From contig OZ296655.1 in NCBI GenBank assembly GCA_965655095.1, forward strand, positions 6,572,001 to 6,636,000: a stretch of 64,000 bases of DNA, in the 5' to 3' direction. Each line of letters starts with the position of its first letter. Position 1 is the first letter of the stretch. Below the pieces are notes generated by a model. It searched no databases and was not told where the DNA came from. It saw nothing but the letters and a program-made list of their open reading frames with translations. This document shows positions 9,401-34,720 of this stretch, in pieces. Both the position numbers and the translations under genes were made by a program. The stretch comes from Haplodiscus bocki. Its lineage: Eukaryota.

Positions 9401-10666
9401 AACATTAAGACCACCAAAATAGTTGACACCATCCAAAATGGACGCTTTCTCCGTATATTCTAACTTCACAGGCAACTGGAGATCATGTGAAAAATTCAAT
9501 GTAAGCGAAGCTGAGTGCATTTCATCTGATTTCCCTCTAGCATTTTCTACTAAAGAGCAACCATTCTCATGAACAGTGATTCGCAATTGGTGACCCTCGA
9601 TTTCAATTCCCAAGTCAAGAAGCAAATCTGATTGGCTAATTTCACTAACATTACACAAATTTTGAAGCACTATGCTGAGAGGCGTTCTGCGCGCTCTGGG
9701 AGAAACGAGAGCATCACCGACTTCAGGTGTCACATGAAATTTGTCAGAGGGTAACGTCCATTTATTCGGCTTCGGCAAAATAGTCATCACTCGTTTAGCG
9801 AATAACATTTTGATGCCATCTTCGGGTGAAAAAAGCCGTTCTCGTTCTCGTTGATTGACTTGAAAACATCTCTGTCGGTCTTCTTCCAATTCAGACGGTG
9901 ACAGTTTTTGCAAGACTGCGTTGTAATAACATTGCGGCAAGCAGTTTTCATCATTGATGCTTGTTAAAACAGGTGACCATCTACTTCGAGGATATAATTG
10001 TTCCAAGAAATTGGCGTAAGAAATGCGATCTCGTAAAGGTGTTTGGCTGCAAAAAATGGCATACTTCAGACAATCACTTCTTCCGTGATAACGTTCATCG
10101 ATTTTCCAGAACTCTTGACCAATCTGATGCAAGGCAGCCATACCGGCCCCAGACGCTGCAGCCACTGCTAGAATGAAACAGCAGCGGTTCTGAAAGGAAG
10201 CACAAGCTCCTCCGGTAGCAAAACCAGCATGAGCATCGTTTTTTCTCCCTTCGAGAGCCACTGTGCCTCTTCCTGTCAAGGGAAGCATTCGTTTTTCCCC
10301 ATTCGGCGTTTTAACTGTTACATTGCCGAAAAAATTCACGCAATCTTCAAAAAACGGTTCGAAATCTACAGCAACAGACAATGGATAGAGCGGTTCCAGT
10401 GCTAGAGAGAAATTCAAAGTAAAGCTCTGTGTTGACTTTTGTGATTCCAATAAGTTGCGGTCGCCAAAAGGATCCAAATATGCGAATCCAGTTTCTTTGA
10501 ACGAAATGGATAGGTTTGTATCTGTTAATCGGACACCTAAATCTCGCAGTGCCAGGTGCTGTGAACTGGGATTGTTTAGCTTATGTCCGACAGCTTTAAT
10601 TTCAGTTGTTTCCCCGAGTACAGTTTCGAACGCGTTGGGCTCTCTTGGTAAAATCTGAATCTGCAT
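6410..10666 (-). CDS. Uncharacterised 1418-aa protein with four tandem copies of a ~250-aa domain and an acidic duplicated linker
   Basis: Uninterrupted 4.26 kb ORF. Motifs [G/C]VN[YF]xG, PL[VT]GRGT[VI]xL and F[QL]x[RK] occur four times, YHGR three times. A splice acceptor (ctattctttcag) lies 7 nt upstream of the ATG. Confidence 0.9.
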   Translation of the reverse strand: MQIQILPREPNAFETVLGETTEIKAVGHKLNNPSSQHLALRDLGVRLTDTNLSISFKETGFAYLDPFGDRNLLESQKSTQSFTLNFSLALEPLYPLSVAVDFEPFFEDCVNFFGNVTVKTPNGEKRMLPLTGRGTVALEGRKNDAHAGFATGGACASFQNRCCFILAVAAASGAGMAALHQIGQEFWKIDERYHGRSDCLKYAIFCSQTPLRDRISYANFLEQLYPRSRWSPVLTSINDENCLPQCYYNAVLQKLSPSELEEDRQRCFQVNQRERERLFSPEDGIKMLFAKRVMTILPKPNKWTLPSDKFHVTPEVGDALVSPRARRTPLSIVLQNLCNVSEISQSDLLLDLGIEIEGHQLRITVHENGCSLVENARGKSDEMHSASLTLNFSHDLQLPVKLEYTEKASILDGVNYFGGLNVQDQFFMPLVGRGTINLDQLSGSSEHALPVISGKIASFLTKCAIVLAVCKCFGASPYQLGQVKELFCSIDYKLYKQPEIILYYHECLKYPQNKMPSFTAFLSTIYEEKMWSDNLKHLVKKGYPHEGYFSTLKVVLTAQELAKCLKRHETRSANPKQPPGANGVMESDFPIAFFPYTARFGNSFQLTSGKEVSIEETLHSLSSENLDQQLQLLDIVVPDGVFQLSFAENGNPYLDQSADRSKTFSDVSCQISIKLPLPVKSSKSLKLSALLEHFSEGGVNYLGKLLAENLQGERRVIPLVGRGTVALEGQESGDTHAGLATGGACATFQNRAAAILGAGFALGLEEGALKQIYYTLCYVNSCYHGRKSSLDYIMYCISTSEKNRKSYYKYMLETSEESELNCLMVSLRDKKEICEATLAKVKSKLTVEEQQEDLDALDTGLHEHELHSHADDDDCDDVSPREQNSTSLTNDAFHDTDDDSRHVHFNLDTEVISVDLESKVERGKLRGSISVPVQSGKSGDTCAPVASREEASPSQKTPWKKAPNCVTTSNTTTEETSSTNGSGEDGRPYAEDLDALDTGLHEHELHRHADDDDCDDVSPREQNSTSLANDAFHVTDDDSRHVHFNVDTEVISVDLESKVERGNLRETISVPVQSGNSGDTCAPVASREEASPSQETPRKKAPNCVTTSNTTPKKTSSSVVPTNGSGTDSKNNEFLLSEKHNQLLQSISHHLNPTTIKVKPRVGTLFTNFLGRSFSIYDVVTTFRDHQSQGLSMLGISVDKGSKTFNLVFREDGRPYAEPSGNRAKLGPETVTEKYYSCRLANPPPPKLDLLVSLVPFEQDGVNYLGRITFNSPLNEYRVIPLVGRGTVALEAKEQSDAKCTPCITGSAATFQQRIALCFASLAAAGGTAQDLDDLSVSLKSISDLYHGRDDLFFYTLQCAKKSASSVPSYLKFISLTSREEERSGMLRSMITRGVPSEDYYAQLVDVLSREELMQDRI
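7289..8115 (-). repeat. In-frame internal tandem duplication (offset 417 bp) in the linker of the 1418-aa ORF
   Basis: DLDALDTGLHEHELH...KKAPNCVTTSNTT..NGSG occurs twice; gatctaccgatatgacttcagtatc at 7504 and 7921. Confidence 0.95.
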
Positions 10667-11149: not shown

Positions 11150-12210
11150 AAAAAGATTACTTCGGTTATGTCGACCAATTTCAGCTTCTATTTCCTAAGC
11201 TCATCCTTCAGTTGGTTTTTAGGTAAGTATCGTTTTCTGCAAATCTAAAAAGAAGTTAATAATGTTTTGTTTCATACATCACAGACTACTTTTTTATTCA
11301 AAAAGCACACACTAGAGGGACCCTCCAAAAGCTCAAGTTGGCTTATGGAAGCAGGACCGTCAAACAAGTCATTAGAAAGGGAGTACATTAACAGAACATT
11401 ATTTCAGCAATTAGTTGACACAAGTAATAGCTTATCAATTCTCAATTTTCGAAAAGTACAAGGAGAAATAGTAGATTTTAATATATGGTTCCGCATTGGT
11501 AATTAAAAAAATGAGTAATCGAGCACTACGTGTACTAAGAACAATTCCTCTGACACCATATTGAAATTATCCTTCTCAAATTTCTTAGATTTTTCTACTT
11601 AGATACTCATTGTAACTTGATAAGGGATTTTTCTTTATTCAGCTTTGTTATTACTTGTTGGAAACTCGCTGAAAGTATCATGTAACTCAATGCTTCTCTT
11701 CATGAGGTTAATCTATATTATATCGAAGTGAACTCTTTTTTTTTCTACAACTCCTCAAAATTGTAGATGAGTCTAAATTGATTCGATACATTTGATCAAC
11801 GATTACTCAGCATCTTTGAAAAACACTGTAAATATATTTTTGTCTAATGTCGCCTGAAGACCTGCCAAGTCTGGTTTTGGGATTTGAAGATTTAGTAGTG
11901 ACTTCCCTCCCATTCATGTTTCTACGGAAAGTAAAATCTAAATAGGTACGAGAATGAACGGTTGAAGTCAGTTTGGTTACAACACTATCACTTGAGCGAA
12001 AAAAACCGTTGTGTATCAGAGGATCAATTCTGCTGGATAGGTTTTCAGTGACTCCCGCTGGCATCAGAAAATTTTGGGAGAGACCATTTTCATTTATGGT
12101 ATTCAAATTTCTACTAAGTGTAGAACATTCTGAATGGTCAGGGTTCATGCTACCCAGAACAAAAAAACTCTCCGAAAGTATTGAAAGTCTTGCAATATTG
12201 CTTGGATATC
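11150..12210 (-). mobile_element. Decayed LINE ORF2 (3' part of AP endonuclease plus RT remnants), interrupted by the Polinton
   Basis: VLGSMN...GLSQNFLMPAGVTENLSSRID...STVHSRT matches decayed GDFN / PTR / ID / SDH motifs. FLDLQKT at ~11240 matches RT FLDLSKAF. Confidence 0.65.
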
Positions 12211-12373
12211 AGTAAAGGAAGGAGGGGGGTTTGCTGCAATTTTTGACTCCCAAACCGAAAATTTTCTAAGTCAAAAAGGTCAAAGTAAAAAACCATTTGA
12301 AACTGAATTTTGTTGACTGAGCACAGAGTAAGTAAACCCACTGTCAAAAATCTTTCACAAGGCAAATTTTCTA
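12211..12373 (+). repeat. Polinton left TIR
   Basis: agtaaaggaaggagggggg...ggcaaattttcta is an inverted match to 26330-26495 (roughly 80-85% by eye). Confidence 0.9.
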
Positions 12374-12743
12374 CGTTGTTCTCACTGTTGGCAACCGAAA
12401 CTTAACAAAGCCAACAAAGTTGATTGTCGACTGTCTTTTTTGAAAATTTCAATCTGATAATTCCTTTTCTTAACTATTGTAACGAAAGCAAGAATCAGCT
12501 TCTCAAACTATTACTAATCAGCAAAACATCTAAAAAATGTTCTGTTTCACTTTTATTTAAATTCGATTTATCGGAAAACGGGAACCAGCAGAAAAAGTCG
12601 TGGTCCATTGCAAATGGAAAATGAAAAAAAATTAAAAACAAAAATTTCGAACGTTTCCGGCGTGTTTCGTGTGAAGCTGAAAATTGAACACTTCTGGACC
12701 ACGTCCTTTGCGAGTTACACATTTGTTTATTTGAACCTGCACA

Positions 12744-15700
12744 AGGTTTCCTTGTTGTGAATGTGGTAGATTATTGAGCTCAAAACGTGCTTCAAGTGAT
12801 CACAAGCGAAAGAAGCACAATTTTGAAGCGATTGATCTGATCAAAGTTTCCAAATGTGGTCATTGTGAGGATTCTTTCACAAAATATTGCAAATTTTTGC
12901 GCCATCTAAGGAACCATTACAAATCATCGGGCAACTATCGATGTTTCTCTTGTCCAACCTACTTTGGAAGCCTCTCAAATTTGACTCAACACCAAGAACA
13001 GTATCATAGCGATGTATCTCTTGGTAGACCGAAAATCAACGTCTCCGATTTGCTCGATTTCACAACTGAAGCCGTTAATTCTAAATTCCAACTTCATCAA
13101 TTCAAGCTTGAGGACTCTGATGGTCTGGAACCGTTCAACTACAATATTTCTCAGAAATATAGAATCACTGTATTTGTGAATTCTTTATTGAGCGTGACTC
13201 CAAACGTTAAACCCGGTCTAAGCACTACAGTGAAACTGAAAAAGCCTTTGGAGAGCAAGGTAGTAGAGGCTTTTTTCAGTTCGGCCATATCTCGAGTTTC
13301 TTCTCAGCTCACCGATGTCGAGTATTTGTAGCATGTGGATGCCTTGATGACACAATTGAATATCTTCGCCACAGGTGGTTCGGGATGGATGTTTGGAACA
13401 TTGACACTGTTGGAAATCAAAACAGTCTCCTGTAGTAAAATTACTGTTGGCTCATTTATAGAAACGCCACCAATTCTCGAACTACTGAATTGCTCGATTT
13501 TGAATGTTGTGAATAAACGTTATGACTTCTGCTTCTTGTATTGCGTTGCAGCTGCTCTATTCTCTTTCATCGGAAGAGCTAAAAGTCCAAAGAACCATAA
13601 GAAAAACATCGAGCGGCTATCTTTCAACTCAAAGCTAATGCCGATGCTTCTGTCCGCGATTCCTTCTTGTGAGAAACGGAATCGTTGCTCAATCAATGTT
13701 TATCAGATGGAGATCTCCAAGTTAGTGTCCGTGTATCACGGTAGCAATCGAAGAGAAAGACACAAAATTGATCTTCTCCGCCTAATGGATAACCTAAACA
13801 GTCATTATTGCCTGATTAAAAATTTCTCGAGTCCTATTCATTTCCTAACTAGGTCCAGAATGAAGCACGACAGGGGACCAAAATCGCGCTTTTGCCGAAA
13901 CTTCTTTCAACCGATAATTAAAAAGAAAGTCAAGAAACACGTTTCGTTTTACGAAAATAACGCACCACTTGAGATTCGAATGCCTCTTGAATCACCAAGA
14001 ACTGAGTTCGTCAATTGGGACAAAACGCAAAAGTGTTCCTTTGTTGTTTATGCTGACCTTGAAGCAGTCAAGGTGGCTTCAGCACAATTTCCTCAAACTA
14101 AACGTGGGACAAAAGAAATTGAAAAGCACTATGCACCAAGCTATGGAGCAGTCCTGGTTGATTCTAGGAGTTAGTTGAACTTTGCCTATATCTCAGTGAG
14201 GTTATGGAAAAAATCTAATCTTTACCACTTTTGTTGACCTTATTCAAGTTTTAACTCGGCTGCGCTCAAAGTGATTTTCGTTTCAGCGAGTGGAATTGTT
14301 AAACAAGGTTTCTACCGGGAATTGGACTGTAATGAAAAGTTGTTGGACATGTTGCGTGATTGGTTATTTTGGTGCTACGGTGAGAAACAGATGTTCAGAC
14401 GTTTAATCGTTTCAGAGCAGCAGCGGAAGCGAATGTTGAACGTGGCAACTGTTTCATGCTGCTGATGTGGCATGGATGTGGAAAAATCAGCTCGATTGAT
14501 TCATCACTGTCATCTTTCAGGAATAATTTTTGGCGTTGCCTAATCACAATGCAATCTGAGAGCCAGAATGACGACTTTCTTACCAGTCTTTTTCCAAAAT
14601 TTACCGAGATACGATGCTCACCATATTTCGAATTGAAACACTTGAAATTAAAGGTGGGTGAAAAATTGTCTTCAATTGCCAAAACGGATGAAACATACAT
14701 TTCATTCAGCATCAATATACCTGTGGGCACTTACAAAAAGCAATCGGGGCAAACGGTTGAATTGTATCAATTTCTTCGCTTCCTCGACAGCTATCAATTT
14801 GTTTCTCAAAGTCTAGAAAGTCTTGCAAAGGAACTGAAGAAAGATGACTTGTTCTTACTCAAGCAATTCTTTCACAATGTTCGGGACCAAATTTTTTTCA
14901 AGCTCACTCAGAAAGGTTTTTTCCTTACAGTTAACTCGACTGTTTTGAAAAGTTTAAAGAGCTTTTTCCAAATTATGGTGATGCTTGGAAAAATAGTCTC
15001 TCTGGTGAAATCGGTATTACTGATTCTGACTATCAACATGCAGTCAGTGTTTACGATGATTTTGGTTGGCAAAACCCGAGCGACTATCACGCCGTGTATC
15101 TAAATACTGATCTGCTTCTTTTGGCTGATATTTTTGAAAATCTTCTAAGTGTCTGCCTAAATGCTTACAGGCTGGATTCCTCTATTTTTATTCGGCTCCT
15201 AATTTGAGCTGGGAGTCTATGCTCATTTCCACAAAAGCGAAGTTGGCACTGTTGCAAGACATTGACATGCTGTTATTTTTTGAGTGTGGCGTTCGCGGTA
15301 GAAATAATGGAGTTGGAGAACTACGTCATTTCCCAGCAAACAACGCCCATCTCGACAATTTTGATCCGAGACAAAAAACAACGTTCGGCTCTTTTTACGA
15401 TGTAACTTCACTTTACGCCGCGACAAAGCAAAAAATCATGCCTTTAGATAAATACAATTGAACACAGAAATCACAATCGAACAAATTAAGAAAACTTCTG
15501 AAAATTCAAGCGTTGGGTACTTTGTAGGAGTTTATCCGAAGTATCCCCAATATCTACATGATCTGCACAATGGACTGCCTTTAGCACCTAAAAAGTTGAT
15601 CATACGGTCCTCATGGTTTTCACCTTTTGCCATGTTTTTTGGCATTCAACCCAACAAAACGCCGAAACCGGTCGAGACGCTATTGGACAAGGAAAATAAT

Positions 15701-16622
15701 GTCTGTCATTTCGAAAATTTGAATTTTTATGTAAAACATGGTTTGGTCGCCGATGAAATACATCGCGTGTGCGAGTTTGAGCAAAGCAAGTGGTTAGGTG
15801 TGTACTTAGAAAAAAACACTGTTATGCGCAAAAAAGCTAAGAATGACTTTCATAAGAACTTCTACAAGTTGATGAGCAACGCATGTTTCGGGAAAACCAT
15901 GGAAAACTTGAGAAAGCGATCGGTTAAAGGATTTGTTTCCAATCATCAGCAAGCAGAAACCTATGCTCAGAGAGCAATTTTCAAACCCTTTCAAATTTTT
16001 AGGCGAGATTTGGTTTCTGTATCTTTCAAAAAATCGTATGTGGTATGGACAAAGCCTACTCCTGTGGGAGCTGCCATTCTACATTTGTCCAAATTGTCTT
16101 TGTACAAGCTTCATTACGAGGAAATGATCCCTCGTTATTGGCCAAGTCATTTGAAAGTAGCCTATAAAGACACCGACTCTCTGTTCTACCTGATTGAAAC
16201 CCTTGATCTCTTCAAAGATATGGGGTCTTTCAAACAATTGCTTGATCTTTCAGGTTACCCGCAAGACCACTTTTTGCACGATCCAACAAGTAAGAAATTT
16301 CCGCTAACTATGACAGATGAATTACAAGGCAAAGTTTTACGCGAAGTTGTTTGCTTACGATCCAAACTCTATAGCATCGACTACGTTGGTGGGTTGAAGC
16401 AGAGCGCCAAGGGCGTACAAGAGTCAGTTGAAAAAACTCTATATCACGATTTGTTTAGACACTACCTCTTCTCAAAAGACACAGTTGCGTTCACACGGTC
16501 ATCAAATTGTAGTCAATGAGATTGATAATGCCGCAGTCAGCTCATTTGATGACAAACGCTTCCTTCTGGATAATGTTGTTTCTTCACTTGCCTATGGACA
16601 CTACATAATTGGAAGTACTTGA
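12744..16622 (+). pseudogene. polB: Protein-primed family B DNA polymerase with 3 N-terminal C2H2 fingers, an endonuclease VII-like insertion and one predicted intron; stops and frameshifts
   Basis: Exonuclease motifs YADLE and FLDSYQF; polymerase motifs YDVTSLY, KLMSNACFGKT, YKDTDS, RSKLYS, KGV; HHCHLSG...CNL at ~14500. The start codon appears mutated ATG>AGG at 12744 relative to the copy at 203. Confidence 0.92.
14170..14286 (+). other. Predicted GT-AG spliceosomal intron (117 bp, phase 1) in pPolB
   Basis: GAT TCT AGG A|gttagt...gattttcgtttcag|CG AGT GGA. Removal joins YGAVLVDSR-T-SGIVKQGFYRELDC in frame and removes stop codons. Confidence 0.75.
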
Positions 16623-17292
16623 GTGACACTACAGACCAACAAACAGGTCGCTGTTTCAAAATGTTTCCAATTCTTTGGTTTCTCCAACCAGAGTCTTTGG
16701 GAAACTCTTCACACTTTTTTTCTTCTGTTCAGGTTACTCAAATGGTTACGACTCTTCGTCATTCTATAGTGACTCGACCTTTTTCACCAGTAGTTCCTGC
16801 TCTTCCGCTACTGATCTGGACTCTGAGTCGTCGAATTACAGCCAGACAACGCAACTTCGTGGCTCTCTGCATGATGTGCTCAAAACATTACCTTCCTCTT
16901 GTAAGTTGTGGCAAAGCAAGAATTTTCTTTGCGTAAAGTCAAACTTCTACAGCAGTAACTATTGCATTGGTCTTTAATTACGTATGGTAAAGGTTCGCGT
17001 GGTTCTTTTCATCCGTTCGTTAAAATCAACGCTTTCTTTTTTAGCATGGTACACAGATCTTGGTTTCAACCAGCCTCCTATATCGGATCGCGAACTATCC
17101 GACTTTGTTGACTGGGATCAACTATCTTCAATGGCTGACGATAACGATGTTTATTCTGGTCCAGGCCCAATATGTCCCTTCAATGACAGGGAAGCCGAAG
17201 AGGAAGACCTAGTAGATTTGCCAGCTTTCAGAAAAAGCAGGAGGCGAGCCTTCTTGAGCGAAGGCAGTGACACAGATGAAAGTGTGGCCTAA
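16619..17292 (+). CDS. Predicted 3-exon acidic Ser-rich accessory protein (exons 16619-16646, 16733-16900, 17045-17292)
   Basis: Introns gtcgct...tcttctgttcag (16647-16732) and gtaagt...tttcttttttag (16901-17044), both phase 1, join three separate ORFs into one frame. The start is TTG, overlapping the pPolB stop (probably a mutated ATG). Confidence 0.65.
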
Positions 17293-17364
17293 ACACTAGT
17301 AAACTTTCAACGTCTTCGCATCACAGTCTTGCCTTAATTTTAAATTCAATACTAATCGACATTT

Positions 17365-17951
17365 TTACGAGGTTCTATATTTAAATTGACTATATTTAAC
17401 ATGTTCATTAAAAAAGCGTACTGTATCAATTTCAGTGGTTTGCATTAAAAAGGGATTTTTTTGCAGTTTGTAAACGTTGAAGGGTTTCCTGACCAGATAG
17501 TGTACTAGATACAAGCAGTACAAACCACACATGTTAGAATGAAGTTTTTGCAAGGGTTGGTTGATCGTTTGGAATCCTCCACATTTTCTGCTGTAGAAAT
17601 TGTAGTCTGCTGAAATTGTAGTCTGCTGTAGAATTGATCAAATTAGCATAGAGGCCTGCCGAGGCAATCCCAATCAAAAATTCCAACGTGATCACCATTG
17701 TCGCTTGCACACAGTAAAATCCAATGCTGACCGCTTTTATTTGACAGCGAGCAGTTTATTTTTTGAAATTTCCTCAGTTGTGAAACTTTCAAGCTTTACT
17801 CTTTTTTCTTTTTGTCGGGCCTGCTGGTTTTTTGTTTTTCCACGCAGTCTATCTTGCATTTAGGGAAATAGTCCGACCACCAAACGCCACCAAAAACGTG
17901 CAATGTACTGGAACACTTTGTTGCAATTTTTGCAATTGTGAAGTTATCCAT
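17365..17951 (-). pseudogene. Adenain-like cysteine maturation protease
   Basis: MDNFTI...FGGVWWSDYFP, GQHWILL, DWDCLG, QKLHSNMCGLYCLY (His/Asp/Gln/Cys). Frameshifted. Confidence 0.85.
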
Positions 17952-19350
17952 CGATTATTGTCTTCTTGGAGATGTTTGAGGCAGAATCGGTGAGCACTTG
18001 ACTGAACCGCCCACCAATTAGAAATAATTCAATTGCATCTTCAAGAGCATTGGAGAAATACAATTTCAAGGTTAAACTCGATCCCGTGAGTTCGGGAAAC
18101 AAGGTAAGGCTTCTGCTAGCCTCTTCCGTTGACGTTAGATCGAAAACGAGGAAAAAATGATTGTCCTCGAAATCTTCCATTTTTATCCCGTTCCCATTTT
18201 TGTTTAACACAAGAGCCGTAAATGTATTGTAACAAAGCCTAACTTTGTTACTCGTGTCTATTGGAGTCCCAGCCAGGGGCACCCCGTTCCCGCGCTGTAT
18301 TTCTATACGCTGTAAGTTGAACTTTTGATATGAAAAAAGCAAATAGTTCAAAGCTGTACATCGAAGCAGTGAATTTTTCACCATACACAAAGTTAACCTT
18401 CTGATTGGCTCCGTTCCAAACACGTTTTCTTTCACAAAACAGTTTTGACTTTCTTGTATGATTAAACGTTTGTTCAAATTTTCAATGTAGGGGTAAATAG
18501 CTGAACTCTTTACGAGAGCCTTCTGAATCGACAATTTCACACTGTCCGTAACCACTGCTCTGCGCAGAAAAAGCGAATCTTTCTCAAAAATTGCTTGCAC
18601 TTTACAATCAAGAGCCTTAGCTTCGTCATCGGTTCCCTTCATAAAAAGCATCGTGTTTTTGGGAGAACAAAAAAATCGTAAATGAATTTGGACGCCGGGC
18701 ACCAAAAGTTTCTCGCAGTCAGAAAGGTCAATATGTAATGCTCCATAGAGATCGGTCGTGCATTGTTTTTGGCGATCAAAATCAGCGTGAAATTTATTGA
18801 ACTGTTGATTTTTCTCACTTGTTTTTGCCAAGTAACCTTACCCCTGACACTTTGTCCAAGTTTGCGATCCGTCAGTGATAGCTGTAAGTTATGTTTCGAT
18901 GAACGCAGCATAAAAATACCAGTTGTTATTGTGTGAAATCAGTTTCCCGTTCAACTAATTTTCAGCGTGAGAGAACAAAATGTGAAGCGTGTTGTTCGAA
19001 AAAACTATTGGATGCTCATTTACTTTGGCGTGGGTCTTCCCGTCCTCTGTGTTGACGCCAACTTTTACACTCAACAGAATACGATTCAAGTCAATCAATT
19101 TTTTTGCTTCAGTTGTTACAAAAAAGTCCAACTGGGGGCCTCTACATCCTACATGTGGGAAATCGTCTTGATCGTAAGAACCTTCGTAATTGATCAACAT
19201 GTTAGGCTTCTCAAAAGAATCTAGAGCGCTGTGAGTGACCGGGCTCGCAATCTCCATGGCACTACCAGAAAAAGTCGTTGTTGTTGCTGTTGTTGGTAGG
19301 GCCAGATTGCTTGCTCTCTTCCTTTGTTGTCGTTGTGGTTTCACTATCAA
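17944..19350 (-). pseudogene. Polinton major capsid protein (double jelly-roll), frameshifted
   Basis: SALDSFEKP, IDLNRILL, NNTLHILFS, GALHIDL..CEKLLVPGV, FFLVFDLT, LTLKLYFSNALE are typical Polinton MCP motifs. Confidence 0.85.
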
Positions 19351-19953
19351 GCAAACTGAATTTCAGACAGAGTATCTGACCGACTTTTTTTGGCGGGACT
19401 TGATTTGGAAATGATTTGTGTCGTTGTTGATTTGGGCAAAGATGCTACTGAAATCTTCCGTCGCTTTCGATTTGTACTGCCAGTCCGCCGTGGATCCACT
19501 CCGTCCTTCCGCTTGCACGCCATCCGGCCGCCTGGCACCCCTCCGCCTCCGGAATGCGCCGCCCGCTGCGGTGCAGCACCCGCCCCGGCCGAACGGCCTG
19601 AAAATCTCGGCGCTGAGGTCTTTACAGTTTCCTTGGTAGCAGTCTCCGCAACATGTTTTAACATTTTGCCACTGGGTCTCTCCTTGCCGGCCAAAAACTT
19701 GACCAATTTCAGGTACTGCCGCTTCCAACAAACTTCTTCCTAGTTGTTTAGCTGCCGGCAGAATGTACCTCCGCACAACTGGAATTGCCACTTTTCCCAT
19801 TCGCATGGCAAACGCGCCCAAGCCACCAGCACCCGCTCCCATTTGGCGAGCCGGGCCGCTAAACGAGGCGTTTTGATGAGTTGCATGATGATGATTGTGG
19901 TCACCTCGTATTTGAGAATCATAATGAGCATCCACTTTTTTGTGTGTGATCAC
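19347..19953 (-). pseudogene. Putative virion core / membrane-active protein (one frameshift)
   Basis: RQMGAGAGGLGAF followed by an amphipathic stretch (AIPVVRRYILPAAKQLGRSLLEAA), then an Arg/Lys-rich C-terminus. Lies between MCP and minor capsid genes. Confidence 0.6.
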
Positions 19954-20111
19954 CTAATTTAACATACATACACACGATTCATTTATGATAATGATGATTA
20001 ACGGTTGGTACATTTGTTTGGTTCCGTGACTAATTGTCAAATGGCGTGGACAAGAGACAAGAAGAATATTCAACCTTCTTCGCTTGGTTATTTCTCGGTC
20101 AATTGTTCTTG

Positions 20112-21155
20112 TCAACATGTTTTGGTCCTAAGTGCTAAAGTAATGATTGTGCGGCCGCAGCTCAAAAAGGGCATGCTTTGACCCATTTCATTGGCCAGAG
20201 TCAGAGTGAGTGATTGAAATTCTGATTCGTAAATTCGCTTCCACAGCAAGTTTGAAAAACTCCTGTGGTCCACTTCTTTCCTTTCTCGATTGTCCGTGCA
20301 TGAAAACCCTTCAAGAGGAATGGAACGCAACAACGCAGTTTGTGTGTCACCCAGGATCTCAGTTTGAACCAAGTCGCAAAACAAAAACATTGTGTGACTT
20401 CCGGCTTTCAAATCAACCGGCCAATGACCTGAGTTCTATACAACTGTGATATCTCTTTGATTGTGCTGATCGTCTTGGCAGTTGCCATCAAAGTTATTTT
20501 TTGACTCCTGTCTCTGCTCGCCGTGTTGGCAGTCTCTGATTGTGGTCAAGCCCAGTATGTTTTTCAAATCTTGTGATTTTGCTCGGATAACCAAACCGTT
20601 TTGCGCCACATTCCCCCAAAACCTAACGTGAAGTTCTTGCGTCTCCCTATCAGCCATCCAGGAAAATTTTGTTGATCGCGATGTTGTATCTGTAGGTTGC
20701 TGAGTTGTTAGTGGGAGAAGTTTTCATTGTCGTTTCTTGTAGCACTTTTGACTATGGCATCCATGATATCATCAATGGATGAATAGCAACCTGGCTTTAT
20801 GTAGCGTACTTCTGGAGCAGTGAACGTCAACGCTGGTTTCACTGCTCTAAACTATCGGGCCACTCTCATTGACACAACCCCTGGTCGTCTGCTTGGAATG
20901 TTTTTGCTCCGTATTTGATGTGGCGGCGGTGACTTTGTGCGCGGCACATCTTTTGAAACGGTGATTTGGCCCTCAGTTAGATTGCGAACCATTGCCGGCC
21001 AAGAAATCTCCAGCAAAGCCACCTACCAATCCCCGGAGAGAGTCACATGTGTGGGTAGAGTGTAGTGAAACTCGACACTTGTTTCCTGGAATTTTTTCCA
21101 TGGACGCATTGGAAATTAAGTTTAGCGTGAATTCAGCACTGCCAGAAGCAGTCAT
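20112..21155 (-). pseudogene. Polinton minor capsid protein (penton), frameshifted
   Basis: N-terminal FTLNLISNASME..PGN; C-terminal MFLFCDLVQTEILGDTQTALLRSIP...GRTIITLALR. Confidence 0.85.
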
Positions 21156-21249
21156 GTCTTGAGGAGATGGAAGCCTCTCAATTTGACAGGTTGTTGATAT
21201 TACGCCGTTTGGTATTTTCAGGAACGTGCGCTCGTATTTTCTTGTCCAA

Positions 21250-22410
21250 TTTGTTTTGACTAATTTCACAAGTTCATGTTCATAAAAGTTACCTTGTATG
21301 ATTTCGTCGTTTACGTCCTTCACAACGTACGTTGGCGGATTTTTTGTAGGTTTGTGTGAAGTTGTAAAAAGCTCTTCAGTGAACTGTATCCTGTAACCAC
21401 GATGAATTGTTTCAATTTGCTTTCAAATGCGAACTCGGTCGCCGACTTTGAACTTTGGCCGTTGTGGTGGCACAGTATTGCAAAAAGAGATTAAGTAGGG
21501 AACATCTTTTTGAGACACTTAGCTTGGAGATTGGAGCCAACTTAGTCATACGACTGACTCTTTTGTTAATGATTGAGACAAACTTTTCAAGTTGGTCAAT
21601 GTATCGATTTGTGTCACGCTCATGTAAGTCTTTGAAAATGATAGTTTTCAAGGTTCTTATGTATCTGTCAGCCACAACAGATTTTGTCTACCTTCTTGTA
21701 GAGTATATTTCTTTAAGTTTTTCTTTGCAAAACTTTGCAAATTCACCAGCAAACTCTTTGCCGTGAGCAGCCCATATCTGTTCGGGAAAGTTTTTGGTTG
21801 CACAAACTTTTGGAGCATTTCTTTGCCTATTAGTTGAAATAATTTTTTTCACTGCTCGTGAACATGCTTTAGATGTCTTAGACTTCACGCCCACGACCCA
21901 TAGAAAGCAACTCAAAGTGTCGACCGCCACAAACAGATACCTAACTCCCAAATTTTCTCTGGAAAGTTGCTGCTTATCGGCCAAGTCAATAGACCAAACC
22001 TCTTTCAGTAAATAACTGATAACTTTGAGTCTCGGAAACGATTTTCGGGCAAGTTTAAATTTCTTGCAAGTTCCACTCGAGTTCAAGTAGCGATTAACAT
22101 GTTTGAGCGAGCAGTTCAATGCCCTGGCTAAAATTTTTGGACTACCAAACGACGTTGCTTTTTCTGGGTTTGTATAGGCATCGTGAATCTTGGTATATTC
22201 AACTGCGAACGGATCATCATCTTCAATCATAACTCGACTTCTTGAACATTTTGAACATGGAAAGTTGTCAATATGTTCAGTTTTGTTTTCCAACACAGAA
22301 CAAGTGAAGTGAACTAAACTACACACATGGCACCACACCGTAGGGTTTTGTTCTAATCCTTTACCCAACCACTTTTGGCAGCACCCGCAGAACCACTTCT
22401 TTGGCGCCAT
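21250..22410 (-). pseudogene. Retroviral-like (rve) integrase with N-terminal PHD finger
   Basis: WSIDLAD, YLFVAVDTLS, GKEFAGEF, VADRYIRTLK, HRGYRIQFTEELF, IQGNFYEHEL. The N-terminus has a C4-H-C3 pattern. Confidence 0.9.
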
Positions 22411-22434
22411 TTGTCGAACAGTAGATTCAGAGAG

Positions 22435-23090
22435 TCAGACAACTGCTGGGGGCTTCAGTGTCGAGTTTGAGCGTGTGCTTGGGGATTCTCCGTTTGCTTT
22501 CCGGTTTTGGATTCTAGAACTCGTCTGTCTAGCGTAAGTGTTTGCCAGCAGAATTTGCGGCAAAGCAAGTATCTGAACCGAATTGAGAAATTGTTTAGGC
22601 AGCTGTTTAGTATTCACTTGGAGAGCAGTTAGGAAGTCAGTTACACCTACTGATGTATCTTATTCATCCATGAAAATGTTTTGATTTATCTCGTCAACAG
22701 TGACGCGGTTATTTTTTTGGATGGCCTTCAAGTTTTGCTTTGACCGTTCAATTTTTCCTCTAGCTCTTCCCGATTGCAGTAGGCCAGCCAAAACTTTGTC
22801 TGGTGTATTGTTTTGTTGGTAGTCAACGTTTACTTGTGACGTCGATGATTCTTTACTTGCCTTCTTGTGATCCTGAAACTTTGAGTTCAAATTGATTTGA
22901 GCAATCAACGCTTGTTCCTTGTCGATATGCGGATTCGTCGTCCCTTCACTTTTGCTGTTTAAAGAGGTTGATGCTGGCACCTGAGCGAGGAATTGCTGCT
23001 TCTGTTTTTCAGAAAAATCCAGACGTTTGCTTTCGTGTTGTGGTTGATTTTTCAGAAAGCAGTACTCGCGTTAGTTATTAGGACTTTTAA
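22435..23090 (-). pseudogene. Polinton hypothetical protein (fragmented)
   Basis: Consecutive same-strand ORF fragments between the integrase and the next conserved gene; no motif recognised. Confidence 0.45.
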
Positions 23091-23103
23091 AGCTCCTTTA
23101 AAG

Positions 23104-23400
23104 CTACCGTTTGATGTCATGGTAAGACTTTAAATGACTTAGCACCAACAGAAGAATGAATTTCAAAAAACGTAAACCTCTAGGAGAAGCCAGCAGCTGT
23201 TGCTTACGTTTGAGTGAATTGTCTTTCTTTGAACAGAGAGTCGCTATAGTGCTCTTTTCTCGTGAAAGTTTTGATATTTTCGCTTGAATACTTTTCGCTA
23301 GTTTGACATTTCCTTTTATCACGTTAAAGACGCAGTCGCAGAAGAGTTTAATTACTTCTTCAGAACAGTTCAAATTGAAACATCTTTTCAGTTTGAGAGA
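23104..23400 (-). CDS. Conserved small basic Polinton protein
   Basis: LFCDCVFNVIKGNVKL...KRKQQLL resembles the ECxxNxLxGNVxL pattern of the small gene usually next to the Maverick ATPase. Confidence 0.6.
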   Translation of the reverse strand, partial: SLKLKRCFNLNCSEEVIKLFCDCVFNVIKGNVKLAKSIQAKISKLSREKSTIATLCSKKDNSLKRKQQLLASPRGLRFLKFILLLVLSHLKSYHDIKR

Positions 23401-23417
23401 AAAATTTAATGTACAAG

Positions 23418-24119
23418 TTATTTGTAAAAAAATTTCGTAAACTCTTTTATTAAGTTCACGTATAGTTGATCTTTTGGACAGTAGAACAACGCAGGCTCGT
23501 CACCAGAACACTTGGAGGAATAGCTCAGTGTTTTACTACTTCTGACGTCTAAATCAATCATCAAATTAGCAAAGGGTTTGCGAGTAGCTCTTTTATATCC
23601 TTCCATTGTGAGGTGTCGCTCAGCTGATTGACGTCCGAAAAAACCAAACTGTTCTGAATCTCTTGGGTTAATGAAGAGAATATTCTGCGTGACATTCAAG
23701 TCGATTGTTTTCGAACTTTTTGTCTGTTGAAATAGATTGTTGCTTAAAACAACCAAATGGATGTTGGGATGTCGATCGGCAATAAATAGTGCAGGAAATT
23801 CTTTGCTTTTCACCGCTTCTTCGAATACATCATCCAGAACTAACAAGATCCGTTTTTTCTGCGCTTCAGCTTTTTCCAAGGACTTCTATTCTAATCCTTG
23901 AATAAATTCAATATCAACATGTGTGGAATCGCAGTTCATTAAAATAGTTCCATAATGTTCTCAATAATGATTAAAAAAGTAAATAAATTTGTCAAAGCTA
24001 GGTGAAAATAATGTTGCCTGATTGACAATCTTACGCCCAATCAGTCTGGTTTTCCCGGATCCTGCAGGACCCACAACAGAAACAAACCAATGAGGTTGAA
24101 TACTTATTCGCTTATTCAT
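23418..24119 (-). pseudogene. A32/FtsK-like packaging ATPase
   Basis: MNKRI...VVGPAGSGKT (Walker A, ~24049-24072), LLVLDD (Walker B), RH.NI...NLF. Internal stops. Confidence 0.9.
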
Positions 24120-24409
24120 CACTTTGGAGTGGGTAAATTATAACCTAAGCAAGCTGACAAGAGAGAAAGTATCCCTGATGCGAATCTATTGTCCGCCTCG
24201 CAAAATGTGAGGAAAGTTATACAAAAAATGACAAGAATCAAAATAACTAAGTAATGAATTAGTATTACGAGTAAAAAGCGATCGAGCTTGAAATCGCCAC
24301 CGCCGCAAAGGTTTACACAAAATGGTGGTCGCTCTTGATTATTTTCATCAAAAACAAGGCGATCGAGGTTACATTGAGAATTGTTCGCGAAATCAGGTTC
24401 ATCCACCAC
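24119..24409 (-). CDS. Small two-TM membrane protein
   Basis: Hydrophobic FLLVILIHYLVILILVIFCITFLTFC and GILSLLSACLGYNLPTPK. Its TGA overlaps the ATPase ATG. Confidence 0.65.
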   Translation of the reverse strand: MVDEPDFANNSQCNLDRLVFDENNQERPPFCVNLCGGGDFKLDRFLLVILIHYLVILILVIFCITFLTFCEADNRFASGILSLLSACLGYNLPTPK

Positions 24410-24557
24410 CTGTCATTCTTGATCTACACAAAATGCACTGTAATAACCACTAGAACGTGTCGATGTAACGTCTTGCATGGCAAACAAATTGTTCGCTGGA
24501 AGCCTTGCCTGTTCTGGAGAAACCCAAGCGTTTTCCACTTCGAATAAATTGAAATCG

Positions 24558-24960
24558 TTAGAACGGAAAGTTATCGAAGGAATCAGGCTTCAAAAATTTC
24601 ATTAACGTCCAAAAGAAAAATTCCGAAAAATGGCCCAATAGCATGCTGTTTTTGAAATATTTTTCACTAGTTAAGGGATAAACATAACCAGGTCCCACGT
24701 TGTTGACACTTCTCATATAGGCATCATGGAAGATGGCATGCATTCCTAAAACTTTTGAAAACTTCGACTAGTTATGTAGAAGGCTGTCGCTTGCTCCAGT
24801 TTGGCCATCAAAAGATGCCCTTGAGTTGACTTCATTCAAATCTATTGTGATGTCTACATAGAGACAAACAGCAAAAAGAGCGTTTTCAGATGTTGTGTTT
24901 TTTGGGAACCAGTATGTTACTCTCACAAAGTTTTTGCAAATGTCCTTCGAAGAAAACACT
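24558..24960 (-). pseudogene. Hypothetical Polinton protein with an HxxxHDAY motif (possible phospholipase A2-like)
   Basis: LGMHAIFHDAY...GPGYVY...LGH; fragmented. Confidence 0.4.
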
Positions 24961-25010
24961 TAAGTCAGCAATTTTGAATTTGGAGAAGCTTCTGTCTCAG
25001 AACAAAATTT

Positions 25011-26250
25011 TTACGGAAATGATGTATCAAGAATTGTGTTCTCATCATAAACAGAAAAAAGCTGCGAAGGGTAGTTGTTGCCTTCTTGAGCCGTCGAACC
25101 GATGATTTGAAGTGGCTGAGTCATACATTCGAAGTACGTGCATTGAGCATTTGTGACCCCCAAATCAATATCTAATGTCCGGCTGTGCTCAGTCACGAAA
25201 AATTGCCTAAATCCTTTTTGAAGAAGATCAATGTATGACAATATGCAGTCTTTGAAAGGTGCATCTGAACTTTCAAGCTCGAGCAGTCGTTGAAAAAGAA
25301 ACAATGCTTTCTTTGACCCAACGGATGCTCCCAGTGAATTGTGTTTTTCGTACTCCCAATCACTTTTGAATTTGCAACCAAGTGCTTCTGTGGTTTTCTG
25401 ATTCATGAGGGATTTCATCTTTTCGCCTCTTACCGAAATGGAATCGGCAGCTGATTTGTTGTTTGTTTCTGCTCTGAGAAAGTTTTCCGGATATGAGACT
25501 GTCATCAATTTCACATGCGCATTGTTTGCAGTCGATAGAACTTGAAGAATAGTCTGCTTCAGAAAAGTTTCGGCTTCAGCACAATCAGGAAGATAAAGCA
25601 GAGTATGGCGATGATTCGAGGGCACCGTTTGGCAAATTTCCTCCAATTGCCCACAGCTGAATTCATTCTGAAGGTGTTCTCGGCTTAAATTTTTAGCGTT
25701 GTGCGAGCACATGAGATTTTTTAGAGCATTGCACAGACTGGGAGGCATCGAATCAGGAAACATTTTTCGTGTGGTTTCAGAAAGCTTCTCAATAGTGGTA
25801 GTTTCGTCCGTATGAAATAGGAGCAACCAAAAGTTCGACGGAATTTCTCTGAAAAAAGTTGTCATTTGTTTCAACTAGCGAATATTTTCAGCCACTGATT
25901 GTGGTTTTAAATCTTTTAAAAATGAAGCGTCTCACAGTTGTTATCTCACCCACCTCCTAATAGGGAACTTCCCGTTCGATGTCTAGGAGATTTCCATCAA
26001 AATGGAAGAAAAGCATACTTGGCACAGTTACGATCTTTGATAAGTCCCTGTTTGCAACTGGGCCACGTGAATGTGCCACAGAACGCGATACTGCTGTTAC
26101 TGTTTTCCTAGGTTTTCGTTTTGGATTGACTTCAACACTTATCGAATGCTCGAGAAAAAAAATATTTTTACGACGTTGGTGCTGCATGCTTTGGAAGGTT
26201 AGTTTAGCATCATTTAATCTTTTCTCAGGGGGTCCAATGCTTTTTTCCAC
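25011..26250 (-). pseudogene. Polinton hypothetical protein(s)
   Basis: 287-aa ORF plus an upstream 97-aa ORF on the same strand, directly inside the right TIR; no recognised motif. Confidence 0.5.
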
Positions 26251-26329
26251 TCTCTGAATCGACGAAGTCTCGAAAATGAATTATTTCACTCTTTGTAGAA
26301 CCAGTTGTTACATTTTGACTGATGAACAA

Positions 26330-26495
26330 TAGAAAATTTGCTTTGTCAACGAATTGTGACGGTTGGTTTACTTACTGTTTACTTAGTTAACAAAATTCAA
26401 TTTCGGTTGAATTTGTACTTTGACCTTTTTGACTTAAAAAATTTTCGGTTTGCGAGTCAAAATTGCAGCAACCCCCCCCCCCTTCCTTCACTGCT
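26330..26495 (-). repeat. Polinton right TIR
   Basis: tagaaaatttgc...ccccttccttcactgct is inverted relative to 12211-12373. Confidence 0.9.
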
Positions 26496-26830
26496 AATAT
26501 CCTTCAGGAAATTAGTTTTACTATTAGAAAGTGGGTTGTAGAGACAGCTGATTTTCATTGTTTTTGGTGTTTCGCATTTGAAAAGCGCCACTGTCAAAGG
26601 ACATGGACTCTTGTATTCATTGAGACACCAAGGACGGTTTCTATATTATGTTAAATAGATTAATTATGTTAAAACGGAACCTTTCGGTTGAAGTATCTTC
26701 ATACATCTTTCGGTGAGACATATAATAAACAGCTCGCTACCACATGTAACGAGCAAATTTAGTTCGCCGAAAAGGTGTTTTCAACGACTGAATAATCAAA
26801 TGTGAAATCCTTTTATTATTTTCATCACGT
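26496..26830 (-). mobile_element. 5' part of the interrupted LINE endonuclease
   Basis: ISHLIIQSLK...CLTER (cf. HLNIxSL...CLTETW) and YNPLSNSKTNFLKD, which continues across the TSD into the left flank. Confidence 0.65.
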
Positions 26831-29560: not shown

Positions 29561-30099
29561 TCTACACTCCCAATATCCACTAAGTTAGAAAGATGGAACT
29601 ATCAGAGTAGCTATCAGAGTAGCTTATTCTAATATCCAGGCATATTCTAAATTCCACAAACGAAACAAAAATTTCATGTTGATGGTAGATTTCCCCGTGA
29701 GCAAAGAAAATCTACATTACTGATTCGATAAAGATTTGTAAAGGGGCGTTGCAAAATACAGTAAGTCCTAAACAATTCTTGATAAAAGTAACTTCTGTAG
29801 TGTAGCAAACTTGTATATTGATTTAAGGGCTGGAGTTTTTTTAGTTGACTTCGCCCAAAATCGAAACTTCACCATGGGACGATGAGCAAATTTGACGATT
29901 AGGAACTGTGTAATGAACTGGATGAATGAATGTTTTCGTTAAAACTTGGGTGATTCCAAATCTAAGAACAAGAATTAATTTTGTGACTTTTTGTCAGACT
30001 TTTATTACCAACCCGAAACGTGGGACATTGAGCCTAAATGCTGTGACAAATTTATTTGATAGCCTCGGCTGTGTAAGTTTTTTCAGATATACTGTAAAA

Positions 30100-33000
30100 T
30101 AACCGATGGCGCCAACGCGCAACAACTCAGCATCTGCGCCAAACACAGCAAAGAAGGACGACGGCAGCAATCACCTCATGGAGTGCACTGGACCTGGAAT
30201 GGACGGGAATCTGGACAAACGTTTGGGTGTCTACGCCCATTCCCCAAAAACATCCTCGCAAGACCCTTTCTTTGCGGCTTCTGCGCTGTTGAGGAGCTGC
30301 AGGAGATGAAAACTTCTACTGTGGATGACCGGTTGCCAATCATAGAGGCTGCAGCATTGAACAGTGCGGGAGAACGCGCGCATAAACGGTGTAGAGGAGG
30401 AGCCGGATGAACCATCGCCAGGGTGGTTAGTGTGGCTGAAAAAAACCGGAATCACAATCACAGCTAAAGATGCTAGTACCTGTCACCGTTTAACGGGCGG
30501 AAGTAAGGGCCCAAAACCTTTAAAGGATAAACTTGTCCGGCAAGATACTGAGCACCAATTGACGAAGCACAAAAGGAATCTGAAGGAAACCAGTACCTTT
30601 GTAAATGATGACTTGAGCCTTTACGTGCAAAAAGAACCCGTGATTTTTGAGGAGAGAAGATCATGTTCGTGGTGGTGAAACTGCAAACGAGAAAACTATT
30701 GTATTTATCTACGAAATTCGAAAGCTGGTATTTGGTATTCTTTACCAGCTACAAAAGTGGGATAATGAGCTACTCTCTAATGCCTCCAATAGTTCGAAAA
30801 AAATTTCGTTGTCAAACCTTGGGATGTGTGACAAAATTTGTAACACTTTAGGTTTTTTCCTGTAGGCATCTTTACTCATGGGAAAGTTCCGTGACAAGGA
30901 AGAAAATCGTAGTCTTTAAACGAGCTATGAAATGTTTTCTCAGTTAACTGTGAAATTTAAAAAACCAATGTCCTTCATTCACATTAACGTCCAAAGTGTA
31001 ACAAAAAAACGGATGCAATTGAATTCTATTGTTAGTGAAATGGGCGAAAATGCTATATTTGGTATCTATGAAACGGGGCTCACGCTTGATGATGACTTAT
31101 GTTTAAGGAACATCGCTTCTTCAACCCATGAACTGTATAGATGTGATAGAAGACGAAACAAGGAATAAAAGAAGGGTGGCAGTGTAATCTTTTTTGTACC
31201 TTTAAGACCAGCACCGCAAGAACGTGAAGGTTTGAAAACTTTTGATGAATCCGAATTTGAATCTTTATGGTTTGAATGCTGCTGTAATTTTTCTGAAAAA
31301 TTTAGGTCAAGAAGTCTTCTGAACGTAAGCTATAATCCTATGAAATCGAAACGAATTGACTTTCCCTACTACTTGTTGAGTAATATTGATAACGATATTT
31401 GCGAATCGCTTCTGATCACCGTGATGGGTAACTACAATTTTGTGTTTTTTACAACGTTTGAACGGGAAACACTGGCAACAGTGAATTTGTTCGTTTTTCA
31501 GTTGCTGGTTCAAGTTTGCCAACAAATATATGTGAAACTACGAAATGGCACCTTGATAAAAATCTAAGGGAAAGTATACCAAAGCTTTGTTTTAGTAGTT
31601 CATTCGAAAACGATCACTTCGGTTGCGATCTATTTATAGACATTGCTGTTGAAAATCTCACTCGCATCATACTTCATAGATTTGACAAGAGAAAGTATCA
31701 CAATCGCTTTTTGCAAAGCATGGTCAGGACTCTCATGGTTTAAAGTATATCGGTTTTCAACTCTTAGTGATTTGTTTGATATGTTTGTCTATTTGTTGTT
31801 TACAGCTGTGGAAAAACATGCTCAACTCAAAAAAGTTTTCCTAACGAAGAAAATTCCGAAAGTTTTGAAAGAAACCTGGTTTGATCAAGACTGCAAAAGT
31901 TTGCTTGCTAAACGCCAACTCGCCTGTGCAAGTTACAGTCAAAATGCATCTGCTGATAATTGGTCTGCTTTTAGCAGAAGCCGATTGAAACTCACAAATG
32001 TTACAAAAGATAAACAGAAGTCATCCTCCCGAAAGTATTTTTCCTCCCATGGCTCTGCGAAAGACCGTTGGATTTTTTTAAATGCGTCAGAGGGAGAAAT
32101 CTCCATTCAGTTAATCTCACAGCAGTACAAAACTCGTTTGGGCAGTTGATAGTCAATAACAATAAAACTGCCAATTACAGTTTTTTACAATTAAAATACT
32201 TCAATTTCGTTTTTTCAAATCTAGGATAATACTTTCGCAAATTAATAGAAGAAGCCCCAATTTTACAGCTGCTAAAGGTTGTTTCTGTTTCTGGGCCGTA
32301 TCAGAGAAAGACTATTTCGATATATTTAAAGACCTACACCCCAATAGGCCTACGGGTCCTTAAAAAATTCCCGCTTAGGCAATTTTTGACAGTAAACAAA
32401 TTCCTGTTCCACATTTAACATTCAATTTAAATGAATGCATCAAAAACTGCAGCTTCACGGCGAAGCCAAAAAAAAGCTACCATAACCCCGATCTACAAAA
32501 AAAGTGATGTTCTGCATGCAGCAAATTATCGTGCCATCTCAGTTACTACATCGTTCTCGAAAATCGTCGAGCGTACATTACATAAGGAAATAACAAGGTA
32601 TGTTGAAAATAAAGGATTACTTACACCGTTTCGATTTCGATTTAGAAGTGGGGTCTCATCACAAGATGCCATTGTTTGTTGTGTTGAAACACTTTGTCAT
32701 GAAATAGAAAATGACGATTTGGTTCATGCAGTTTTTTTGGATTTACCTAAAGCTTTTGACTCAGTATCACATGAAAATCTCTGAAAAAACTGAAATCACT
32801 GAATATCTTTCATTCGCTTATTGAATGCATTGAGAGTTTCTGGACGAAAAGATTACCGCAAGTTACAGTAAAGAGAATATTCTGCGACTGCATTGAACTG
32901 AAACAAGGTGTTCCTCAAAGAAGTGTGCTGGCACCCTTGCTGTTCAACTTTTATCTAAAAGAATTAAGATCTCGAATCAAATTCTTGCAAATGCTCATAA

Positions 33001-33900: not shown

Positions 33901-33989
33901 ATGCATAAATCGTTCACACTTTATTGTATACCTATAGTCAGCTATCTCTATACAAAAACCATTGTTATAAATCACTCTTTCTTTCTTTC

Positions 33990-34720
33990 TCACGTTTCAC
34001 TGAACCAAGTAGTGTTTTGTTTCAGAAGCAACAATTCTGTAGTTGTTTTGGAATGTGACAATCAGGGTAATAACAGAATTCATTCCTCTTGAACAGGTAT
34101 GCTTCATTAAGTTTGACGCTAAAGTTCGAGAATCCAATAAACATGAGAACTGCTTCGTTATTGAGCCCGTAAGTCTAAGGATACTTTTATCCCATCGATT
34201 GCAGTGGACAACTTTGCCACGTATTAGAGAGTTAGAGAGGTCCTGCCCTATTTTTTGGACAGAAACCGTGAAATCGAAGTTCTTTGTCATCGGGCGAAAA
34301 AATTTTCGCAGAATGTTGGGTAGTGGATACTTGTGTAGAGAAGACTGACTTTTGGATCAACATCGCTTGCGTCCGACACATCTTCATATCTGATCACGCC
34401 TATGGTAAAAACAGAATGCTGAATTGCTTGATATTATAATTTAAAAATTTGAAGTGTCTTTCCTGTCGGTATTTGACAAAGTGTTTTGTGTCCCAGCATT
34501 TCTTCAATGCATGCGGTCAAGCCCTGTCGAAAAAAAGACTACCCAGTACTCGCAATGGAACTAAAACTTCCAAAACTTTCCTACACTGGTACAACTTTTG
34601 TTTATGTAAACTGATGCGTTTTTTATACGGATCACTTTACCAGACTCATTCAGAGTATTTTAACTTGGAAAATACTGTTTTTACATCAAGTTACTTAGTG
34701 AATATTGAAAATGAATCCAC
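33990..34720 (-). mobile_element. Decayed LINE RT fragment (repeated at +8524)
   Basis: KNFDFTVS...IRGKVVHCNRWDKSILR resembles KAFDTV / GIxGKxxxWxxSYL. Confidence 0.4.

Follow-up and report, generated by a model that had tools for sequence, protein, structure and literature searches.

In the genome of Haplodiscus bocki, a finger fused to the N-terminus of the integrase is a trait of a whole branch of Polinton/Maverick elements, and this finger is under purifying selection, as is the catalytic core. The explanation that we propose, to which we give about even chances of being right as a whole, combines a selected finger derived from a LINE, an earlier loss of the chromodomain and a basic tether to DNA or nucleosomes. 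According to this explanation, the finger, conserved and selected at the integrase N-terminus, would have a PHD-type fold, weakly scored as it is; a Polinton lineage whose chromodomain was already gone would have taken it, and a StopGo/2A-like peptide with it, from a non-LTR retrotransposon; the peptide would later have been lost in the sub-lineage of the copy studied here; and the basic finger would tether the integrase to DNA or nucleosomes during integration, without preference for a mark.

PHDs on other mobile enzymes are known, and an N-terminal PHD-type finger on a Polinton integrase is likely a new, undescribed fusion; we found no description of one in the full-text literature (Repbase and subscription journals lay outside the search). 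In the main text, PMC8502044, PMC6839031, PMC10748475, PMC8097293 and PMC12338488 do not mention PHD, and PMC12338488 and PMC13405545 do not mention polintons.

The element in the window and its branch

The stretch of contig OZ296655.1 that we analysed (64,000 nucleotides, referred to as the window) contains a decayed full-length Polinton/Maverick element (Table 1). Its TIR arms (12241-12373 and 26330-26462) are 84% complementary, its ends are of the AGT type, with AGTAGT termini also present in other copies, and a 6-bp flank pair (12205-12210 and 26496-26501) matches at 5/6 positions, so that the TIR, the AGT-type terminus and the 6-bp target duplication by which Polinton/Maverick elements are recognized are all present. 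The polymerase fragment matched DNA_pol_B_2 at E 2.7e-5, below the cut-off, and zf-C2H2_4 at E 1.9e-5, and the ATPase matched Pox_A32 at E 8.5e-4 (9.4e-6 in copy L010). Pfam gave no match for the presumed minor capsid and protease, and none for the major capsid of the window; a major-capsid-like stretch of another copy matched Capsid_N at E 0.016.

Table 1. Features of the Polinton element, numbered from the first nucleotide of the window.
Feature	Position	Strand	Basis or state
Polinton/Maverick, decayed, full-length, 14.3 kb	12211..26495		TIRs, AGT-type ends, flank pair
Protein-primed DNA polymerase B gene, fragmented, N-terminal C2H2 fingers	12735..16516	+	Pfam matches
Presumed adenain-like protease remnant	17368..17637	-	Cys motif by eye; inferred
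Presumed major capsid gene, fragmented	17947..19362	-	Homology to another copy; inferred
Presumed minor capsid (penton) gene, fragmented	20115..21155	-	Position, likeness to other copies; inferred
Integrase gene: finger, helical N-domain, rve core, C-terminal beta domain	21249..22410	-	Broken
PHD-type Cys4-His-Cys3 finger, C4-x3-H variant, basic	22246..22389	-	Sequence, family alignment, Pfam, fold, Atlas
Polinton ORF of unknown kind, conserved, directly upstream of integrase	22435..23070	-	Sequence
A32-like packaging ATPase, fragmented	23421..24137	-	Pox_A32 match, Walker A motif

The integrase ORF (22410..21688, minus strand) begins MAPKKWFCGCCQK, with the finger ligands C8, C11, C27, C30, H34, C37, C52 and C55 at 22389-22246, and matches rve at residues 137-230 in the same frame as the finger. 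The rve match is weak in this copy (E 1.3e-4) and above the cut-off in most homologs. Decay is evident from stops at 21688-21690 and 21423-21425, a frame break near 21520-21530, and the absence of two of the three catalytic acidic residues and of the finger Trp described below; the window's own finger had no Pfam match at E<=10. The integrase terminus (QGNFYEHELVK...TN, near 21249) lies 31 codons ahead of the presumed minor-capsid Met (21155), which leaves no room for a chromodomain. A profile of the Polinton-type chromodomain gave no match in the six frames of the window or in any integrase locus, and the same search matched 9 host chromodomain loci.

The fusion is found throughout the branch. 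A search of the genome itself gave at least 151 matches (150 scored candidates of 15,797), and at the 60 loci examined, 55 of the 59 finger matches continue in frame into integrase motifs, 53 of them stop-free. In several families the frame is open over about 390-410 residues from the Met, encoding the finger and the core and ending with the C-terminal domain. Because it recurs from family to family (42-82% identity), the finger is not a chance feature, and the integrases that bear it form one clade in the maximum-likelihood (ML) tree (98/85). Over 17 between-family pairs, many of them saturated and not independent, dN/dS was 0.09-0.38 for the finger, several of these values being upper bounds only, and 0.08-0.23 for the core; 12/67 finger columns are invariant across families that are about 45% identical. 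The window copy gave 0.46-0.70 against its own family, as expected for decay. These results confirm two claims of an earlier note on this DNA, namely that the Polinton integrase carries an N-terminal PHD-type finger and that it lacks a C-terminal chromodomain, and in the younger copies, too, the finger lies in the same ORF and the chromodomain is absent.

The Polinton/Maverick (adintovirus) elements of PMC8502044 have the same pPolB, ATPase, TIRs and 6-bp flank duplication, and their chromodomain integrases have the same rve core and a C-terminal beta domain ending GxFYExEL. In contrast to those integrases, to which they are 31-39% identical, the ones described here have an N-terminal PHD-type finger and, like the whole near clade, no chromodomain, and early branches of the finger clade carry a StopGo-like peptide.

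Several other features were seen in the window. An inverted copy of the Polinton left end (33-729, 69% identity) marks another, older element, whose end lies near 716. An 8,526-bp tandem duplication at 29675-46724 (99.95% identity), containing LINE and Gypsy-like remnants, is either a very recent duplication or an assembly artefact, and a decayed Gypsy-like retroelement lies at 45161-50532 on the plus strand (zinc knuckle by eye, Integrase_H2C2 at E 0.003). On the minus strand, an intact 1,418-codon ORF at 6410-10666, which Pfam did not match at E<=0.01 and which contains a 383-nt repeat spaced at 417 nt, is probably a host exon, and an ORF at 2051-2626 encodes a Myb-like DNA-binding domain (E 2.4e-6).

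Type and predicted role of the finger

The finger has the Cys4-His-Cys3 ligand order of PHD fingers, as the earlier note had read it; its spacing, however, is C4-x3-H in 43/43 parsed Polinton copies and not the usual C4-x4-H, which was found in 25/25 parsed Pfam-PHD matches of the genome (25 of 30 loci parsed). PHD was the family matched by most copies (9/18 at E<=10, best 7e-4), although the PF00628 gathering score was not reached (18.7 bits for the first copy, against a cut-off of 24). Sequence matches in the PDB were led by the PHDs of KDM7A and PHF23. For the cross-brace two-zinc fold of PHD fingers, a finger model of pLDDT 69 was compared; the top four VIA rows were PHD (Z 3.0-3.3, rmsd 2.3-5.2, 48-65 aligned), with RING close at 2.9; Foldseek returned nothing at E<=0.001 and listed RING first. 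The ten best Atlas family matches were all of the PHD clan, the first being PHD/Pygo with a score of 0.89, which we treat as a lead only. As to whether the motif would score as another zinc-binding fold, PHD stands at the top in both Pfam and VIA, but all of these scores are weak and RING is nearly tied. We therefore regard the finger as a divergent PHD-type variant and not a canonical member, an assignment supported by sequence and model comparisons, though weakly scored. The full-length integrase model (pLDDT 48) was too poor for contacts.

The eight ligands and a Trp two residues before the His are shared with the PHDs of Pygo, PHF23, TAF3 and KDM7A. This Trp is present in 38/43 parsed copies, the window copy not among them, and in 22/22 rows of the family alignment; it is regarded as diagnostic of methyl-K4 readers (PMC5415848). 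The six parsed host-type fingers of the genome that have the Trp all carry a Met/Tyr three residues before and an Asp one residue after the third Cys; in the Polinton fingers the first of these sites is Ser/Thr/Pro (41/43) and the second His/Asn (40/43). The positions flanking the third Cys are those that we take to be the aromatic cage wall and the Arg2 pocket. Just before the third Cys, 39/43 Polinton fingers have a Trp, and among the 25 parsed genome PHDs an extra Trp/Tyr before this Cys is never combined with the cage Trp. An aromatic residue stands two residues before the first Cys in 35/43 copies, as in readers of the Pygo/TAF3 type. The mean net charge is +6.4 for the Polinton fingers (n=20) and -1.4 for the Pfam-PHD matches of the genome (n=25; p=8e-8). 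Compared with H3K4me readers, then, the Polinton finger has the Trp but is one residue shorter, lacks the Met/Tyr wall and the Asp (the Asp being absent from PHF23, a top match, as well), and is basic instead of acidic.

The strong basic charge, taken with the missing reader residues, makes tethering to DNA or nucleosomes likelier than the reading of a mark, and from sequence and analogy we lean slightly towards the finger being a mark-independent tether, whether to target DNA, to nucleosomes or to the element ends, and not an H3K4-mark reader. DNA binding has been described for basic fingers of the PHD fold (PMC5636791, PMC5861402, PMC6222470): the basic PHD of BAZ1A binds DNA (PMC5636791), and a C-terminal cross-brace finger of piggyBac, located on the transposase, binds the transposon ends (PMC5861402). 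The piggyBac finger differs from that of Polintons in its C5HC2 ligand order, position and lineage, DNA binding by the latter is a prediction, and basic residues are not enough by themselves for DNA binding (PMC5636791).

Alternatively, and closer to the chromatin reader of the earlier note though without a literal swap, the finger might read H3K4me2/3 in the manner of Pygo, through a semi-aromatic pocket, and so direct integration towards active chromatin. Such a function would fit the Trp at the methyl-K4 position (PMC5415848), invariant in the family alignment, and the second aromatic residue ahead of the first Cys, as well as the purifying selection, the first Atlas match and the fact that the best fold and sequence matches (Pygo, PHF23, TAF3 and KDM7A) are K4me readers. 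We consider it possible but doubtful, given the basic charge, the missing wall and Asp, the extra Trp/Tyr that the genome PHDs never combine with the cage Trp, and insertion flanks of 36-40 finger-bearing copies that did not differ from those of finger-less ones (see below). A bolder version, which we think unlikely, is that a working StopGo + PHD cassette was captured from LINEs, perhaps twice, and that the finger is a non-canonical methyl-H3K4 reader targeting active chromatin; if true, the cassette would give Polintons a route to active chromatin opposite to that of the chromodomain, with the finger-less families as a built-in control.

The flank comparison made use of a young Polinton family in the genome that has neither finger nor chromodomain (L203-L242 and L283-L302; 316/348-codon frames, about 90 copies among the matches listed, and a different gene order). 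The presence of near-intact finger-bearing and finger-less families in one genome makes the role of the accessory domain directly comparable. In a first set (8 measures, 20 finger-bearing and 18 finger-less copies), GC in 500 bp differed (p=0.011), and tandem-repeat flanks were found in 0/20 finger-bearing and 6/19 finger-less copies by a later terminus call (p=0.008). In a replicate of 20+20 new copies, set in advance, the tandem-repeat difference was gone (1/16 and 1/20; 3/20 and 1/20 with a fixed flank length; 3/40 at random), and GC did not differ (p=0.49); nor did the chromosome position of 40 and 40 copies (p=0.27). In the finger-less family, 7/39 flanks lie in tandem-repeat arrays, which was not replicated. 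The different integration targeting that the earlier note had suggested was thus not seen, and because the measures are crude and blind to histone marks, it is only a gross difference that is absent. That the chromodomain itself plays a role in Polinton site choice is put forward as no more than a suggestion (PMC8502044).

A structural or protein-interaction module, acting in multimerisation or capsid packaging in place of an HHCC zinc domain, is a less probable alternative again. The finger sits N-terminally in integrases that lack the N-terminal zinc finger of Gypsy and Ginger enzymes (PMC2836005), and its surface hydrophobic residues are conserved, but the basic loop is invariant, and the abundance of near-intact finger-less relatives in the same genome indicates that there is no such need. 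PHDs do occur on other rve-type enzymes, namely the Ginger1-9_HM transposase (PMC2836005) and an Atlas cluster of H2C2+rve+PHD; in Ginger, however, the PHD is C-terminal, after Ulp1, and the Ginger and Atlas enzymes have H2C2 and are not Polintons.

Origin of the finger and probable loss of the chromodomain

A profile of 22 natural fingers was run against 1.84 billion (1.84e9) protein representatives and gave 78 matches, with pieces of integrases at ranks 1-37. The best-ranked of the others, P0156 (E 7.7e-10; hhalign 99%, 47% identity over 53 columns), carries, like its relatives, a Leu-rich GIETNPGP peptide immediately ahead of the finger. In P0159, a relative of P0156, the finger is followed by an APE endonuclease; P0168 has the same APE layout with x3 spacing, and in P0185 a finger of x3 spacing precedes a reverse transcriptase (RT). 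Only these three non-integrase matches carry a retrotransposon Pfam domain, the others being assigned by eye, and no host chromatin-protein domain besides PHD was found on the 38 lower-ranked matches scanned. Judged by sequence, the nearest non-Polinton relatives of the finger among the 1.84 billion proteins are fingers of non-LTR retrotransposons.

A StopGo core, (D/G/C/N)(V/I)ExNPGP with a Leu-rich upstream, lies 2-8 residues ahead of the first Cys in 10/13 database and 4/4 own-genome early-branch integrases and in 5/10 LINE proteins, and all 30 of the 403 fetched proteins that have the core either bear the finger or belong to the cluster of a protein that does. The core is absent from the window's family, in which no StopGo-like motif was found between the ORF directly upstream of the integrase and the finger. 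Both an early-branch Polinton family with the peptide (L052, L072, L099-L107) and LINEs with the peptide-plus-finger layout are present in the same genome; in the early-branching Polinton integrases, this family included, the peptide stands 2-7 residues ahead of the first Cys. The core motif has been widened to Gly/Asn at its first position, and Leu-rich upstream motifs go with Asp, not Gly, at that position (PMC12846837). The combination of a Leu-rich upstream with Gly makes skipping activity uncertain here, and the peptide may be weak or inactive.

A 2A-like peptide, a PHD and an APE are combined in ORF2 of known LINEs (PMC3708506), the Leu-rich StopGo-like peptide standing directly before the finger as it does in the early-branching Polintons. 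LINE ORF2 fingers, including those of CR1/L2 (PMC4120745), resemble the Polinton finger in their x3 spacing (several of them) and basic charge, and the structure matches are also parallel, Pygo and PHF8 coming out on top for the Polinton finger here as for the LINE PHDs (PMC4120745). What follows the finger is different: an APE endonuclease and RT in LINEs, the DDE integrase of a DNA virus-like element in Polintons. In a finger tree of 49 columns, mobile-element fingers separate from host PHDs (94/100), and the StopGo-bearing Polinton fingers group with four APE-LINE fingers (89/91, unstarred and rough), a result biased by the use of the Polinton profile to find most of the LINE rows. Because the nearest relatives are LINE fingers and the early-branching Polintons share the StopGo-like peptide ahead of the finger, capture from a LINE is highly probable, its direction resting on parsimony, and later loss of the peptide in the window's sub-lineage is rather likely. 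This would amount to domain traffic from an RNA-based LINE to a DNA virus-like element, StopGo-like peptide included, and the Polinton finger would then offer an accessible case of the LINE-type PHD, a domain on which no functional study was known as of 2014 (PMC4120745).

Three Polinton integrases (P0092, P0093 and P0231) carry a second PHD type, of the usual spacing and annotated PHD_Pygo in two of them, which groups with the finger of an own-genome RT element, L151 (92/93). An independent second capture is possible; a single clade of both Polinton finger types was not rejected in the AU test (p=0.19).

The earlier note had seen in this family a swap of one chromatin reader for another, and missed the likely LINE source and the peptide. 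Among 299 candidate integrases, 231 span the core and the C-terminal domain. A chromodomain is present in 116/231, every one in a far group beyond a 100/100 branch, and in 0/115 of the near clade, of which 66 are labelled finger-less. The far group was drawn from the neighbours of one protein, so that closer chromodomain-bearing relatives may have been missed. The genome itself gave at least 18 Chromo matches, and no integrase lies within 1.5 kb of these; with a chromodomain-bearing integrase as query the best match listed (34%) stops ahead of the chromodomain. The ML tree used 65 of 118 rows (dropped were 11 truncated database calls near-identical to finger-bearing rows, 13 redundant rows and 29 of the outgroup). 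In it the finger clade is nested inside finger-less rows (95/97), the StopGo-bearing lineages are the first to branch off, and a derived position (100/96) is taken by the StopGo-less group that includes the window's family, although a single clade of StopGo-bearing rows was not rejected (AU test, p=0.29). An IMG/VR scan found no relative, and a metagenome scan gave 6 loci, two with a chromodomain-like tail; the five that were translated have no finger. Since near relatives lack the chromodomain with or without a finger, and chromodomain-bearing rows lie beyond the 100/100 branch, it is probable that the chromodomain was lost before the finger was gained. The simplest order is chromodomain loss, capture and then peptide loss.

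That the PHD directly replaced the chromodomain at the root of the near clade, with the finger then lost in the finger-less families, is very unlikely. The outgroup sits on a long branch, and a sister relation of the finger clade to the chromodomain group was not rejected (AU test, p=0.13); an exchange, however, requires several losses, runs against the nesting of the finger clade in finger-less rows (95/97, 98/85), and does not sit well with a LINE-like junction peptide that is still present. That the finger is a neutral passenger carried in by a LINE insertion is scarcely credible, in spite of the LINE-like junction, given that dN/dS is far below 1 and that invariant columns persist across such divergent families.

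Two further observations concern StopGo-like peptides in this genome. L104 and G000:C6:2108120-2130939 are tandem arrays of Polinton fragments, with three 3.37-kb units of StopGo-like peptide plus finger and six integrase fragments. A near-intact LINE family (L121:362-5066 and L122:232-4926) encodes, within a single frame of 1,565 codons, the canonical GDIEENPGP motif together with several PHD-like fingers, an APE, an RT and an RNase H.
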